Shown here: piece after piece, positions 1 through 6,000 of the stretch
Layout: every line of letters begins with the position of its first letter
Numbering within the stretch: position 1 is the first letter of the stretch
Source of the DNA: Myxococcota bacterium
GTDB taxonomy: Bacteria; Myxococcota_A; UBA9042; PHBI01; JAWLBL01
Reading direction: 5' to 3'
DNA: 34,461 nucleotides
NCBI GenBank assembly: GCA_041687695.1
Contig: JAWLBL010000044.1
Location: 1-34,461 of the forward strand
Program-made: the position numbers

Positions 1-3000
1 CACCCCATGCTTCTCGGCGGCCACGGCGAGCGCGTAGCCGAAGATCTGGCGGACCTTCTTCTCGGGGATGAAGGAGAAGCGGCGCCGGTGGGCGCGGCGC
101 GTGATGAGGACGATCTCTCCGGGGACGACCGGGCGGGCGCGCGACATGGGGGACCTCCGAATGAGGCCGGCGGGCGCTGCGAGGCGCGCGCCGGGCGGTT
201 CGGGGGCCGCGTAGAGCAGAGGGTGTGCCAGTCGCGTGGAGGGGGGAGTCGGCCAGCAGTTGCGTCGCCGAAGGGGCGCGAACGAGCCCTCCGAGCGCTC
301 AGCCGGGGACTGATGACCCTGGCGCTGGGGACTCGGCGCGCGGCGCGGTCGGGGCTCGGGCCGGCGGCGGCACCAGCGCGCGACCTCCTCCGCCCTGGTC
401 GTCAGGCCGGGCACCCGGCGCGTCTCACCGTGAGATGGCCTCGAGGGCGCGGCGCTCGACGCGGCGCAGGAGCTCGGCCAGGGCGGTGCGGGCGGGGCTG
501 GGGGGCAGGGGGGCGAGGCCGGCCGTCGCCTGCGACAGCTCGGCGCGCAGGCGGGAGAGGACGCGCTCGGGCGCACCCGACGTTCGCACCCGCGCGGCGA
601 CCTCGGCGCAGCGCTCGGGGGTAGCTCGTCCGGTGGCCAAGTCGGCCAGCGACGCCGCCAAGGTGGGGTCGGCCTCGAGCGCGTAGACCAGGGGCAGGGT
701 GGGGGTGCCGCCTACCAGGTCCTGGCCCAGCTCCTTGCCCAGGGCCTGGGGGTCGGCGCCCAGGTCCAGGAGGTCGTCGGCCAGCTGGAAGGCCACGCCC
801 AGGTGACGCCCCAGCTGGTCCAGGCGCGCCTCGACGACCGGGCCGGCTTGGGCCGCGCGGGCGCCGCCCCAGGTGGCGAAGGCGAAGAGCGCCCCGGTCT
901 TGCAGGCCGCGATCTCGAGGCAATCGCGCTCGGTGGCGGGAGCGCCGCCGCGCCGCTCGAGCTGCAGCAGCTCGCCGCGGGCCAGCTCGCGGGCGACCTC
1001 GACCGCGCGGGCCATCAGGGCGGCGTCGTTGGCCGCCAGCAGCGCCTCGAGCGCCGCGAAGAAGCAGTAGTCGCCGGCCAGGACGGCGACCGAGTTGCCG
1101 TAGACGACGCGCGCGGTGGGCTGGCCGCGGCGCTGCTCGCCCTGGTCGATGACGTCGTCGTGCAGCAGGGTGCCCGTGTGCAGCAGCTCGACCGCCGAGG
1201 CGACCGGCAGCGCGGCCTCGGGGCGGCCGCCGGCGGCCTGGGCGGCCAACATGACCAGGGCCGGACGCAGGCGCTTGCCGCCCGCCTCGAACAGGGCGCC
1301 CGCGGCCTCGCGGGCCTGTCCTGGCAGGGTCGTGAGCCAGGCCTCGACGCCCTGCCTCACGAGGGCGTCGAGCTGGCGGTGCAGCTCGGCCAGCTCGGCC
1401 AGGTGCTGCGCCGGGCCGGGCAGGCCATCGGCCAGGCGCTCGAGCGTCGCTGGCGACAGCGGGGCGGCGGCGACCACGCTCAACCCCACAGGACGCCGCC
1501 GGCCATCAGCAGGCCGGCGACCAGGTGCAGGCCGATGGTGGCGGCGTTGGCGCGGACCAACTCGCGGTCCTGGTAGTGACGGAACAGATGCTGGGTGGCC
1601 CACAGGGCGAGCGGGACGCCGGCCAGCATCCACAGAGCGCCGGCGGGGACCAGGTCGGCCGCGACCAGGGCGACGGCGGAGCCGAAGGCGGCGACCATCA
1701 GCGCCAGGTAGCCCCAGCGGGCCGCGGCCTTGCCGAGGACCACCACCAGGTGGTTCTTGCCGGTCAGGGCGTCGCTGCGCGCGTCGGGGAACTCGTTGAC
1801 CCACAGGATGGCGGTGGTCAGCAGCCCGACCGGCAGGCCGGCGAGGAAGGCGCGGGCGTCGAGCTGGCCCGAGACGACGTAGGCCATGCCGGCCAGCATC
1901 AGCGGGCCGAAGTTGAGGCCGATGAACAACTCGCCCAGCCCCTTGCGGGCGACCAGGCGCAGGGGCGGGGCGGTGTAGAAGATGGCCGAGAAGGCGCCGA
2001 TGGCGCCGAAGACGAGCAGCTCGGGCCCGCGGACCGTCAGCAGGACCGCGCCGATGGCGGTGGCGACGGCCAGCGCGGCGAGGCCGACGTTGCGCATGCC
2101 CTTGGGCGAGACGAGGCCCAGCTCGATGGCGCGGCTGCCGCCGCTGAACGGCATGAAGTAGTCGGTGTTGGCCTGGTCGGTGCCGCTGGTCCAGTCGTAG
2201 TAGTCGTTGAGGGTGTTGGCCGCGACGTGCAGGGCCAGGCCGCCGACCATCGCCAGGGAGAACAGCCCCCATGGGAAGGCGCCCGCGACGTCGCCCCAGG
2301 CCACGGCCAGGGCCGCGCCGAGCAGCAGCGGGACGAGGGAGGCCGTCAGGAAGGGCGCGCGGGTGATGACGAGCCACTTGAAGACGCGGGTCCACAGCGA
2401 GATGGGGGGCATCGCCTCGGCCACCGGCACGTCCGGCCGCGGCGTCGTGACCCCGCAGTAGCCGATCTGGACGCCGTTCTTCTTGGTGGGCGTGATCTTG
2501 ATGTCGGCGGCGAAGGGCGTGCCGTCCTTTCGCACGAAGACGGTGCGGCCCTCGAAGGCGCCTTCGCGGCGCGCCGTCTCCAGCCAGCTCGCCACGTGGC
2601 CCAGGACCACCAGGCCCGGGCTGAACAGGCTCACCCGCGCCTTGCCGACGACCTCGTCCGCCGAGTAGCCGAAGACGGCCTCGGCGTCCTTGCCGAAGGT
2701 CTCGAGGCGCCCCTCGAGGTCGCAGGTGATGACGCTCTTGAGCCGCTTGCCGGTTGCAACGGCGGCTTCAGTCGAGGTCTTCGTCGCCGCCTCCGCCTTC
2801 GCTGCCGATCGTGTCGTCGTCATGGCTGTCGCCTCCTCGGCGGGCGACGCCGCCCGCCAGCATCCCGATGAGGCCACGCACGTCCAGCGTGGCCGTTCGA
2901 ATGAGCGTGGTGATGGCGCCGCCGACCAGCTCGGCGAGCTGCCGCATGCGCCGGATGCGCTCGAGCGCCAGCGGCGAGGCCTCGCCCGAGGCCCGCGCCA

Positions 3001-6000
3001 GACGCTCGGCCTCGCGCAGCTCCGTCTGCACGCGCGCGACGAGGTCGTTCTCGCGGCGCGACAGCACGCGCGTAATCATCTTCATCAGATCGGTGCGCGC
3101 CCCGTAGCGCCACACGCTGTCGCGCGGATCGCGTACCCGCTCGATGACGCGCCACTGCTCGAGCTCGCGGATGAGCATGGACACCGCGCCCTTGCTCAGC
3201 TCCAGCGTCTCCTGCAGCTCGGCGGCGCTCATCGCGCGGTCGCGCAGGTACAGCAGCGCCCAGATGCGCCCGTGGTTGCGCTTGAAGTTCCAGAACTCGA
3301 TGACGTGGCCCACCGCGCTGACGGCCAGCGCCTCCCAGGCGCGCAGGGACTCGGCCGATTCGCTGGGCTCGGGCCCGTCGGGGCTGTCGTCGGACGGGGA
3401 CATCGCGGGGCGCCTCGCTACGCGGTTCGTGGTGTATTGATGGTTCAAGACGTTTTGAACTGCAAGCTTCAAGTCGCAGGGGCGAACATCGGGCGCCTTC
3501 CGAGGAGCATCGAGCAGGACACCGGGACAGTGGCCGGGACCGCGACCGGGGCCGAGGCCGGGACGGTGGCCGGGACCGTGACGGGGGCCCGGGACCGTGG
3601 CCGCGACTGGGGACCGCCACGGGCGACCGTCGGCCAGGCTCAGCCGGGTCGCGAATTCCTGTCGGCCTCGGCCTCGAGCGCCGCCTCGCCCGAACCCCTC
3701 ACCGAGCGCGGCAGCGTGACCTGAAACTTCGTGCCCTGGCCCGGTTGGCTGGTCACCTCGACCTCGCCTTGCATCCCCTCGACGATGCGCCGCACGACCC
3801 ACAACCCGATGCCCAGCCCGGCATAGGCCCCCGGCGTGACCGCTCGGGTGAAGCGGTCGAACACGGTGTGCAGGCGATCGGGCGAGATGCCGATGCCGTG
3901 GTCCTCGACCTCGATGCTCACCCGGTCGAGGCCTCCGCCCGCCCCAGCCGCTTGGGTCAGCCGGACCTCGATGGGCTGCCCCTCGCCGTATTTCACCGCG
4001 TTGCCGACGAGGTTGAACAGCAGCTGCTCCAAGCGCAGCCGGTCGAAGCGCCCGGGCAACGCCTCGGGGCCCTCGAACGTCAAGGTCGACCCCGCCTGCT
4101 CGGCCGCCAGCCGCAGCCGGCGGACGGCCTCGCGCGCAACGGCGGCCCAGTCCTCGTCCGTCGGCAGGATCACCAGGTCGCCGCTCTGGGCCTGCTTGAG
4201 ATCGAGCAGGTTCGCGATCATCTGGTTGAGCCGCTCGATCTGCGTCGCCATCGCGTCCAGGTTCTCCTCGAGCCACGTCGGCCCGCCGCCCGCCAGGTGC
4301 CGCCCGGCCATCCGCCGCGTCGCCTGCACCGCCAGGCTCAGGCCCGTCAGCGGCGTCTTCAGCTCGTGCGAGGCGACCGACAGGAACTCCTCGCGCGCGC
4401 GCACGGCCTCCCGGGCCTCGGTGATGAGGCGCTCTCGGGCGTCCTGCGCCGTCTGCACCGACGCGGCCATGTCGTCGAAGGCGCGCGCCAGCTGGCCCAG
4501 CTCGTCGGGCTCGTGGGCCAGCCCCGATCGCGCCGCCAGGTCACCGCGCGCCAGCGCCTCGGCCGTCTGGACCAGGGCGCGTGTGCGGCGCACCACGATG
4601 AGATCGGCGCCGTACCAGGCCAGCAGCGCCGTCACCAGGCCGACCAGGGCCAGCAGCAACAGGTTGCGGCCGGCGTGGGTCTCGACCCCGCGCTCGAGCG
4701 CCAGCATGGGGATACCGACGACCACGTGGACGTCCCCGGGCTCGGGCGACGGCTCGTTGATCGTGGTGAAGGCGAACAGGCGCTCTTCACCCGCCGGGCC
4801 GTATCCGGTGACGATCCCCATCCGCTGCGAGAGCACGACGTCCACCCAGGCCAGGCCGGCCAGCGAGCGGCCGAACCAGAGATCCTCGTCGGGGTAGCGG
4901 ATGATGACGCGCCCCGACGCGTCGAGCAGGGTGAGGATGGTGCCTTCGGGCAGATCGCCGACGTCGAGCCAGCTGGCCAGCCAGGTGAGATCGATGGCCG
5001 CGAAAAGGACCCGCTCGAGGGTGACGCCCGACTCGTCGAAGACCGGCAGGGCGACGTTGATGCTGGGGCTCCCCGTCAGCCGCCCGATCTGCGGGTCGCC
5101 AATGGCGAGCGCGCCCGTCGCGACGGCGCGCCGGAAGTAGGCGCGGTCGGCGACCGACACGGGTTCGTCGGGGGTCAGCGCGCCGCACTCGTAAGCGCCC
5201 TCGGGGGTGACCGAGGCCATGTTGTGGTAGCGCGGATAGGCGCGCATCACCCGGCGCATCAAGTCCGTGCACGCCCCGGGGGTGTCGAAGTGGTCCTGGG
5301 CGGCCAGGCCGACCAGGCGCAGGATCTCGCCGGTCTCGGTCAGGGCGCGCCGCTCGGCGTCCGCCACGCTCCGCGCCACCTCGAGCGCCCGGCGCTCGAG
5401 CGCCTCGCGCGCCTGCGTGTGATGTTCGTAGGCCGAGACGGCGAGCAAGGCCGCGGCGGGGGCGAGCGTCAGCACAACCAGCGCCAGGACTCGCGTCCTG
5501 AGCCCGGCGCCGCGCCATCTCCCGGTGCGCGCAGCTCCCCCGCGCCCGGAGAGGTCATCGGATGAGGTCATGCGGCCCACCTTATCGCGGCGCGTCCACA
5601 GCGTCGAACGAGCGCCTCGGAGGCGCGTGCGACCTACGGACACGGCCACGTCCGGTGTGGTATGAGCGAGCCGTAGCCCCCTTGGAGACGAACCCGATGA
5701 AGCTCCGTCCTTCGCTCGCCCGCGCCGGCCTGTCCCTCGCCACCGCGCTGTCCCTGTGCGTCGCTGCCTGCGGCGACTCCGAGCCGCTGCCCGGGTCGGG
5801 CACCTTCGACATCGGCCAGGACGCCCCCGACGCCGTCTTCGACGACACGCCCAAGGGCGACGTGACCGTCGACGCCGCCGACCCCGACGCAGCCGAGCCC
5901 GACGCCAGCCCCGACGGCCAGGGCGACGCCGAGCCCGACGGGACCCCGACCGTGGCGCCCCCGGCCGTGGGCCAGGTCGTCTTCAGCGAGATCATGCGCG

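Follow-up and report, generated by a model that had tools for sequence, protein, structure and literature searches.

Genes and features at the contig end

The window, meaning the whole stretch of DNA analysed, spans 34,461 nt of contig JAWLBL010000044.1 in a Myxococcota bacterium assembly (GCA_041687695.1, here G000). Three minus-strand genes with overlapping ends encode a MarR-family regulator, a PAS-fused MenA-like prenyltransferase (PAS-MenA) and a polyprenyl diphosphate synthase (Table 1). All three are real and contiguous, as the first-pass annotation had claimed. A GAGGAGG motif lies 8 nt ahead of the PAS-MenA ATG (2823), and 4 bp are shared between the end of that gene and ispB, whose start is an inferred TTG. 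A sigma-70 promoter scan found no promoter. GC3 at the locus (0.93-0.97) falls within the range of five host genes of the window (0.93-0.98), which argues against recent transfer.

Table 1. Position of the operon, its domains and flanking features in the window
Feature	Position	Strand	Basis or remark
marR, MarR-family (GbsR-like) regulator, 211 aa	2768..3403	-	MarR_2 (PF12802) profile; type co-directional with ispB
PAS-MenA, MenA/UBIAD1-like membrane prenyltransferase, 447 aa	1480..2823	-	PAS and UbiA domain matches
PAS domain, residues 28-128	2440..2742	-	TIGR00229 match and fold model
UbiA-family catalytic domain, residues 150-445	1489..2376	-	both Asp-rich motifs intact
ispB, IspB-like long-chain polyprenyl diphosphate synthase, 352 aa	425..1483	-	polyprenyl_synt, 202 bits
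Palindrome GTTCAA-N6-TTGAAC, probable operator	3443..3460	.	40 bp upstream of marR start
Transposase-like gene, REP-associated, multicopy, 5' end	1..147	-	contig breaks here; flank, outside operon

The two-domain architecture of PAS-MenA is supported by Pfam and NCBIfam matches and by the structure model. All of its top NCBIfam matches are MenA models, yet it falls below every MenA cut-off (TIGR00751, 88.2 against 102.15; PRK06080, 146.5 against 264), whereas the canonical MenA of a relative scores 203.1 and 316.3. Nine UbiA motif residues (N203, N206, D207, D210, G214, D216, N343, D347 and D351) do not vary among the 119 listed relatives, and all four canonical MenA compared have them too. 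Near the active site, PAS-MenA departs from canonical MenA by His199, a 6-residue loop insertion, Gly229-Ser230 and Gly302. His199 occurs in 108 of the 119 listed relatives and agrees with the UBIAD1 alignment, while Gln stands there in all four canonical MenA. Hence, the missed cut-offs and altered pocket residues suggest that the acceptor may differ from that of canonical MenA. Among solved structures, UBIAD1 is the best match both by sequence (24-25% identity) and by fold (predicted model of the UbiA domain against 8djk_B: Z 26.5, rmsd 2.9, 268 aligned); canonical bacterial MenA is missing from the structures listed, so this rank says little.

The PAS domain passes the TIGR00229 cut-off (29.5 bits against 22.9) and lies 0.2 bits below that of PAS_9 (26.8 against 27), and its predicted fold matches 3lyx (Z 17.5, rmsd 2.6 over 108 residues). 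Conservation of at least 95% across the 119 listed relatives holds at 36 of 101 PAS positions and at 87 of 296 UbiA-domain positions. His76 is present in 112 and Cys123 in all 119, and both are missing from the two divergent members checked. Flavin-binding LOV domains carry a GRNCRFLQ-type motif; at the corresponding region this family has GxKRVSLFSPG, which does not match it. A stand-alone form of the domain was discarded, as the 70 shorter matches, mostly on short contigs, look like fragments. No longer matches indicative of larger fusions were found, which is weak evidence, and the Atlas returned generic PAS clusters. A literature search, with most subscription journals outside its reach, yielded no paper joining PAS domain, MenA, prenyltransferase and menaquinone; PAS domain with UbiA and prenyltransferase returned only unrelated fungal work.

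The regulator matches MarR_2 (37.3 bits, cut-off 27) and only weakly the CudC model NF047500 (31.4 against a cut-off of 218). The palindrome upstream of it, probably its operator, matches once in the window and never in 100 shuffles; it is the sole perfect copy in the 7.97 Mb genome, besides three copies with one mismatch. Allowing at most one mismatch, two sets of related loci have it ahead of ispB in 43 of 46 and 8 of 8 cases; 54 control stretches contain no copy at up to two mismatches. A regulator of the G000 type adjoins ispB in 60 of the 62 metagenome loci with room upstream. The regulator family and the palindrome (at most one mismatch) also occur together at true men operons (8/8 metagenome, 6/9 class), which ties the locus to menaquinone operons. 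Among the papers listed by searches combining GbsR with menaquinone, myxobacteria or operator terms, none dealt with this regulator.

Missing quinone pathways and the distribution of PAS-MenA

G000 is an oxygen-respiring bacterium without known genes for the ring of respiratory vitamin K. MenD exceeds its cut-off in 11 of 18 genomes of the order and not in G000, and MenB stays below it (168.7 against 342.7), both as first annotated; MqnA/D are absent from all 80 genomes searched. Neither UbiD nor a UbiA/MqnP-type enzyme was found in G000, which holds three further UbiA-family genes. Complex I (NuoH), an alternative complex III (an ActABC-like cluster beside CtaD) and oxidases (four COX1-family genes) are present, so that the claim of a respiratory chain stands. 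MenG, which the annotation had overlooked, was not found either, and a hidden copy is rejected: a profile of ten MenG-like proteins gave only partial SAM-core matches of at most 70 bits (profile members, 272-342), and PF01209 at most 61 bits. If MenG is missing, either the enzyme would yield demethylmenaquinone or its acceptor would already be methylated. MenD loss is common in the class, with no match in 56 of 107 genomes.

PAS-MenA belongs to a large family, with 1819 of 8000 scored candidates matching at E<=1e-20; identity ranges from 59 to 66% across the 119 listed relatives, every one of which combines PAS and UbiA domains. Within the class, an intact copy occurs in one of 107 genomes and a decayed PAS start, overlooked in the annotation, in another (G132). 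Of 50 other carriers, MenD is missing from 47 and MqnA/D from all, but 32 keep MenG; these counts come from related genomes given without completeness figures, several below 2.5 Mb, and cover carriers only, 31 of the 50 belonging to Chloroflexota, a phylum that frequently lacks quinone pathways in any case (PMC13386864). Three carriers (G044, G050 and G059) have men gene clusters that include MenD and a canonical menA of their own, and hence PAS-MenA is not simply a substitute. MenG was not found in five of ten other phylum matches, one of them 99% complete. His199 is rejected as a marker of MenG loss, since it accompanies both states (28 with MenG, 17 without).

Regarding origin, the annotation had called the enzyme foreign. 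This holds in that a branch with SH-aLRT of 99 and 97 in two trees separates the 19 canonical MenA sequences from the rest, which places PAS-MenA outside the canonical myxobacterial clade. A Chloroflexota donor is unsupported. Despite the highest identity being to an Anaerolineales gene (66%), one tree leaves G000 PAS-MenA in a polytomy and the other groups it with Thermoflexus and archaeal sequences. Other myxobacteria carry PAS-MenA behind the same regulator type.

Proposed salvage role and its alternatives

The locus is best explained, with moderate confidence, as an autoregulated quinone-finishing salvage operon that prenylates a scavenged ring, most likely 1,4-dihydroxy-2-naphthoate (DHNA). 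The IspB-like enzyme would supply a long polyprenyl diphosphate, which PAS-MenA, in the membrane, would move onto a naphthoquinone ring derived from other cells. The product in G000 would be demethylmenaquinone, MenG not being found, and it would connect complex I with the alternative complex III and the oxidases. Acting at the palindrome, the MarR protein may keep the operon repressed. For the conserved PAS domain a small ligand is probable, either a ring precursor or a redox signal, through which it would gate or feed the enzyme. The UbiA fold with its catalytic motifs, the MenA models as top matches, the regulator and palindrome shared with men operons, the respiratory chain and the linkage to a polyprenyl synthase, seen here and in 12 of 80 genome loci, with menG adjoining PAS-MenA in two of the 80, speak for this reading, and the carrier counts fit it. 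Against it, the other 68 loci have no ispB near PAS-MenA. Published work offers parallels: the available text of PMC4746308 proposes DHNA salvage for gut genomes with menA and menG, and that of PMC6030563 describes DMK-10 formed in Streptococcus agalactiae from menA alone. No transporter was identified in G000, which counts against salvage. The annotation had concluded that the cell must scavenge the naphthoate. Scavenging of a ring is supported, as an inference, by the respiratory chain, the missing head-group pathways and the 47 of 50 carriers without MenD; an obligation to scavenge the naphthoate is too strong a conclusion.

The main rival acceptor to DHNA is menadiol. In a manner resembling UBIAD1, the enzyme could re-tail a methylated ring, menadiol or one derived from prey menaquinone, to menaquinone, making MenG unnecessary. 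Such a role is unlikely on present evidence, although the failure to find MenG in G000 and half of the other phylum matches, the UBIAD1 similarity including His199, and the coexistence with full men operons, which suggests a different acceptor, all agree with it. Also in its favour, gut microbes are described as prenylating menadione by an enzyme left unidentified in the available text of PMC7928036, while M. tuberculosis MenA cannot do so according to the text available for PMC6461227. Against it stand the retention of MenG in most carriers, the independence of His199 from MenG loss and the uninformative UBIAD1 rank; moreover, the available part of PMC13386864 lists 39 species with measured menaquinone in which menG is undetectable. 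A broader and equally speculative proposal sees in PAS-MenA the prokaryotic equivalent of UBIAD1, widespread and ligand-gated, its PAS domain capturing or sensing scavenged naphthoquinone and methylated rings of prey or neighbours being re-tailed. If true, this would explain respiration without a known ring pathway in Anaerolineae, marine archaea and predatory myxobacteria. It would also account for the dependence of cultured carriers, Thermoflexus among them, on unknown extracts for good growth.

It is rather improbable that de novo synthesis, through a new ring pathway or with another aromatic acceptor, supplies carriers with a novel quinone or prenylated lipid in place of scavenging. Both known ring pathways are missing almost throughout the carriers, the pocket residues diverge, G000 has its additional UbiA-family genes, and many Chloroflexota lack known quinone pathways, with other quinones perhaps still undiscovered (PMC13386864, available portion). 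However, among 80 genome loci no biosynthetic neighbor recurs besides ispB, marR and menG. The regulator and palindrome, which link to menaquinone operons, and the missing UbiD also speak against this possibility.

The annotation had further proposed that PAS-MenA took the place of menF to menE while the native marR and ispB of the lineage stayed on either side. We regard this as very improbable. The gene order resembles that of relatives, the two types of regulator are homologs with the palindrome in common, and G000 IspB falls on the side of the class clade. Nevertheless, it lies outside the class men-operon clade (sister: metagenome locus L194), and AU tests reject its placement with the IspB of the order (p 5e-52; control without G000, p 0.145) or with 13 core class sequences (p 2e-5). 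G000 ispB is 36-41% identical to that of 18 relatives, whose own median is 50%; a control prenyltransferase, CyoE, reaches 51-72% in four of five order genomes. Placement of MarR with the men-operon MarR of the order is also rejected (p 1e-56), whereas grouping with a second regulator type, that of G006, G011, G013 and G016, is not rejected (p 0.41). The regulator gene is 30-37% identical to nine men-operon marR genes found in the 18 relative loci, and 43-55% to seven adjoining other PAS-MenA genes. Those men-operon regulators are divergent from the men genes in 9/9 loci, in contrast to the co-directional gene of G000. Relatives' men operons also include menC, which the annotation had not listed, and carry menG after ispB in 18 of 18 loci; aroF and menG, which trail ispB there, are absent after G000 ispB. 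As the trees reject both markers as men-operon genes of the order, replacement in place is unsupported.

As part of the salvage reading, and with the same moderate confidence, the lineage would have lost its ancestral men operon, leaving no descendant of it among the three G000 genes. PAS-MenA sits behind the second myxobacterial regulator type, in the slot that another non-canonical MenA fills in MenD-less relatives. Neither MenD nor canonical MenA occurs in G006, G013 and G016 of the same order, where a member of another MenA-like clade follows the same regulator; these genomes also speak for salvage.

An assembly gap hiding men genes or menG is similarly remote: there are 63 contigs, no 16S gene was found and the contig ends 425 bp past ispB inside a transposase-like gene (four copies, three at contig ends), but the genome is 99.27% complete, every one of the single-copy genes concerned, about 8 kb in total, would have to be missing, and the pattern recurs in single-contig G006 (97% complete; MenD, MenB) and in G178 (99% complete; MenD, MenG). 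A longer copy of that transposase-like gene, on contig C22, scores 54.7 bits against NF047646 (cut-off 80). A gap affecting menG alone is more plausible than one covering the whole men set, and the trailing position of menG in relatives, combined with the break past ispB, counts against the preferred salvage reading.

Significance and relation to known systems

Many Chloroflexota and other lineages respire without a known quinone pathway (PMC13386864, in its available text). PAS-MenA, nearly confined to genomes in which ring synthesis is missing, offers a testable marker of quinone dependence and suggests a cheap cultivation aid in the form of DHNA or menadione supplements. The fusion suggests that a UbiA enzyme may carry its own control element, something on which the literature search found no paper, and the palindrome provides a handle on a myxobacterial regulator of menaquinone genes that seems not to have been described.

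Compared with MenA (TIGR00751, PRK06080), PAS-MenA has the UbiA fold, two Asp-rich motifs and best family matches in common, together with linkage to a polyprenyl synthase and a men-operon regulator. It differs in its scores below cut-off, its separate clade, the added PAS domain, altered pocket residues and the lack of men genes alongside, a comparison made by sequence and model only.

Salvage by MenA alone is already published. The menA-only and menA plus menG systems (PMC6030563, PMC4746308), as far as their available texts describe them, share with G000 the retention of a late step, a missing ring pathway and quinone-dependent respiration, with a DMK product where MenG is missing. G000 fits the S. 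agalactiae pattern, as early ring genes are missing while a prenyltransferase and a quinone-using chain are present. What sets it apart from S. agalactiae and gut bacteria is the large genome of a free-living organism, which encodes complex I and alternative complex III, together with the PAS fusion of a non-canonical enzyme, a dedicated regulator and a conserved palindrome.

UBIAD1 is the animal MK-4 synthase (PDB 8djk; available texts of PMC4398444 and PMC6461227). Likenesses are the fold, a His before the first Asp motif and independence from a ring pathway. The low identity, the lack of a PAS domain in UBIAD1 and the retention of MenG in most PAS-MenA carriers set them apart.

The regulator shares its MarR fold with the GbsR-type repressors GbsR, OpuAR and CydE (PMC6207618, PMC7396694). 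An inverted repeat lies adjacent in G000, readable as 7-bp arms with a 4-bp spacer, and a gap of 4 bp likewise separates the half-sites of the operator predicted for B. subtilis GbsR, according to the available text of these papers. As with CydE, the context is respiratory. In contrast, the G000 regulator scores far below the CudC cut-off, and its link to ispB and men genes falls outside the four classes given in those available texts.

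Operon anatomy and quinone gene inventory

Contiguity of marR, the PAS-fused MenA/UBIAD1-like prenyltransferase (PAS-MenA) and ispB, as claimed in the first-pass annotation, is borne out in the source Myxococcota assembly (G000; 7.97 Mb, 63 contigs, 99.27% complete, 2.3% contaminated), where each end of the three minus-strand genes overlaps the next start. The contig end beyond ispB falls within a multicopy transposase-like gene. PAS-MenA has its PAS domain at residues 28-128 and its UbiA domain at 150-445. Its structure model (mean pLDDT 86, pTM 0.81) best matches UBIAD1 (Z 26.5, rmsd 2.9, 268 aligned), the motifs of which are described in PMC4398444, and also matches PAS domains (Z up to 17.5). 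The top NCBIfam matches are all MenA models, all under cut-off, and both Asp-rich motifs are invariant in 119/119 relatives.

Mean consensus over relatives is 0.81 for the PAS and 0.75 for the enzyme domain, so the PAS is conserved at least equally. This conservation, and the near-exclusive occurrence of PAS domains of this type in fusion with the enzyme, argue that the PAS either binds a specific ligand or contacts the enzyme in a fixed manner. The PAS-family receptor AHR is reported to bind DHNA and naphthoquinones (PMC9958510), an analogy that makes a naphthoquinone-type ligand plausible and extends no further. Since one phylum relative (locus L235) has no PAS at all, the domain may be dispensable for catalysis.

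Features of the window and of related loci
Feature	Location	Strand	Remark
Polyprenyl synthase (ispB)	1483-425	-
PAS-MenA, 447 aa, PAS + UbiA	2823-1480	-
MarR-family regulator	3403-2768	-
Palindrome GTTCAA-N6-TTGAAC	3443-3460		pattern search; 40 bp upstream of marR
Imperfect 12-bp tandem repeat	3522-3614		between histidine kinase gene and palindrome region
Cache-HAMP histidine kinase	3640-5649	-	upstream of operon, same strand; generic
Two lamin-tail-domain proteins (one with four repeats) and an adenylate cyclase (vitamin-uptake-like sensor domain)	5562-8951; 20918-22975; 15976-17526	+; -; -
Carbamoyltransferase, then SAM methyltransferase	9767-12813	-
Aminopeptidase P	12825-14303	+
Aminopeptidase P, second gene	25302-26642	-
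Carboxyltransferase, enoyl-CoA hydratase, biotin carboxylase, HMG-CoA lyase-like genes	26620-32226	+
Weakly matching UbiA-family genes of G000	C1:450413; C2:67682; C57:424		loci L030-L032
4HBT thioesterase of G000	C26:59460-59861 (L142:9461-9862)		no men genes adjoining
PAS-less non-canonical MenA-like clade	L239:6927-7874; L240:844-1764; L242:6944-7852; L167		behind same regulator
Truncated PAS start, G132	L241:3176-3286		decayed

The earlier claim that G000 has no men or futalosine head-group pathway held. MenD candidates are acetolactate-synthase-like paralogues, the MenB match reaches half its cut-off, a relative's MenF, MenC and MenE find matches of at most 37% identity, mostly partial, and neither MqnA/D nor UbiD was found in G000. 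MenG/UbiE, over cut-off in 12/17 other order genomes, was not found in G000 by three approaches; the SAM methyltransferase of the window matches MenG over the SAM core only. A respiratory chain was detected, as reported earlier, through NuoH, four COX1-family genes and an ActABC-like cluster adjoining cytochrome c oxidase. Such a chain requires a membrane quinone, so G000 needs one.

The six UbiA-family genes of G000 are CyoE, a decaprenyl-phosphate phosphoribosyltransferase, PAS-MenA and three weak matches; the one on C57 is fused to a radical SAM domain or lies directly behind one. The 4HBT thioesterase is 60% identical to a relatives' gene antisense between menE and ispB. Within the window, two aminopeptidase P genes lie less than 13 kb apart, and the carboxyltransferase set is presumably a leucine/isoprenoid degradation cluster.

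Provenance of the locus and the recurring slot

The locus had been read as an in-place replacement of the men operon between the relatives' own marR and ispB, a reading that fails for both markers. In 18 of 24 relatives' ispB regions, fetched with longer contigs favoured, the men genes precede ispB in 14/18 and menG follows it, with or without aroF, in 18/18; marR and the men genes are transcribed divergently in each of the nine loci that reach a marR (myxobacterial men clusters are described in PMC8955186). The G000 marR, unlike these nine, is co-directional with its operon. It is 30-37% identical to them and 43-55% identical to seven marR adjoining PAS-MenA in other myxobacteria and bradymonads. 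Grouping its product with the order's men-operon MarR was rejected by the AU test (p 1e-56), and grouping it with the second regulator type of G006, G011, G013 and G016 was not (p 0.41). IspB of G000 is 36-41% identical to the 18 relatives' proteins (median among themselves 50%); the control, CyoE, is 51-72% identical in 4/5 order genomes. With 10 of 52 rows dropped for speed, AU tests rejected G000 IspB both with eight order rows (p 5e-52; p 0.145 for those rows by themselves) and with the core class set of 13 rows (p 2e-5). In the tree it is sister to metagenome locus L194, where marR and ispB are adjacent and a UbiE-like gene is divergent. Identity, orientation and AU tests thus indicate that neither gene is the relatives' men-operon gene. 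The prenyltransferase had been called foreign; trees do place it outside the canonical myxobacterial MenA clade but leave its nearest kin unsettled, so no donor can be named.

The second regulator type normally comes after ispB (60/62 of those metagenome loci, among 80 fetched, whose upstream sequence was 600 bp or longer). PAS-MenA follows it in 7/80 genome loci and in only 1/56 of the metagenome loci that extend far enough downstream. Three order genomes, G006 (single contig, 97% complete), G013 and G016, have in this position a gene from another non-canonical MenA clade, one that lacks PAS; searches of the three gave neither MenD nor canonical MenA, and nothing above the MenB cut-off. The G006 gene is close to a cytochrome c oxidase cluster. 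Overall, in 4/18 order genomes the ring pathway is missing and a substitute enzyme sits behind this regulator, parallels that support salvage and make G000 less singular. G132 keeps ispB-marR followed by only the first ~25 PAS codons, so another class member has probably lost PAS-MenA. No MenD match occurs in 56/107 class genomes. MenD is found in 0/20 genomes of family f12 and 0/13 of f15, the regulator in none of either, and whole families may be without known quinone synthesis.

Of 468 stretches of the species collection that matched by pattern, 409 encode relatives of PAS-MenA. Among the best 80, Anaerolineae predominate, with others from Myxococcota, Bradymonadales, Gammaproteobacteria, Oligoflexia and archaea. 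Fifty of these carriers (all 19 without a Chloroflexota label and 31 Chloroflexota with longer contigs; completeness not given) yielded MenD in 3/50, each with its own canonical menA, MqnA/D in 0/50 and MenG over cut-off in 32/50. In the phylum sample, 11/401 genomes match, including G000, one PAS-less form and three divergent forms; the ten besides G000, four of them shared with the 50 carriers, have MenD in 2/10 and MenG in 5/10. The divergent subfamily (L236-L238; G369, G425, G276) has the order ispB-PAS-MenA-marR and a PAS 31-38% identical, with Cys123 and His76 absent in the two members checked. In Anaerolineae loci L087, L102 and L111, ispB-PAS-MenA comes after a MarR regulator that is only distantly related and has no palindrome, a convergent operon.

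A shared candidate operator

The palindrome upstream of marR is the sole perfect copy in the G000 genome, is absent from 100 shuffles of the window and is probably, judging by sequence, the operator of the MarR regulator. The pattern was defined on G000 and afterwards tested on other loci, 24 too-short ones being dropped and several of the rest being near-copies. At one mismatch or fewer, it occurs in the 400 bp preceding ispB in 43/46 loci of the second regulator type and in 8/8 loci where ispB comes after a men operon, and between divergent marR and men genes in 6/9 class loci (8/9 at two mismatches). Control stretches inside ispB gave 0/54, even at two mismatches. Besides the window, it was seen in some 60 related loci. 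Both regulator types probably read the same site. Its occurrence with both types and with men operons ties the PAS-MenA operon to menaquinone metabolism and would mark an apparently undescribed myxobacterial menaquinone regulon. Inverted repeats are the binding sites of GbsR-type repressors, a subgroup of which regulates cydAB; the text on them in PMC7396694 and PMC6207618 gives no quinone context.

Probable salvage of the naphthoquinone ring

We lean towards an operon that finishes a scavenged ring: PAS-MenA would join DHNA to polyprenyl diphosphate, giving demethylmenaquinone in G000, and the same route would yield menaquinone in carriers with MenG. The main rival, a UBIAD1-like use of menadiol, appears unlikely. 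It would suit the missing MenG of G000, the match of His199 to UBIAD1, and reports that gut microbes prenylate menadione (PMC7928036) and that M. tuberculosis MenA does not (PMC6461227); yet MenG is present in most carriers, His199 shows no association with it, and 39 species with no detectable menG have measured menaquinone (PMC13386864). That the family serves an as-yet-undescribed ring pathway is more doubtful still, as no neighbour genes support it.

For testing ring salvage, Thermoflexus hugenholtzii is the best organism, since a MAG so labelled has PAS-MenA and MenG, with MenD and MqnA/D not found, and the cultured organism respires and requires uncharacterised extracts for optimal growth (PMC8129789). 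Our literature search found no published description of the PAS-MenA fusion. Quinone salvage itself is already known; the G000 locus adds the missing MenG, the refuted in-place replacement, the recurring slot behind the second regulator and the conserved palindrome. Genomes with only menA and menG are a reported salvage precedent (PMC4746308), and Streptococcus agalactiae, where menA by itself suffices for DMK-10 (PMC6030563), is another.
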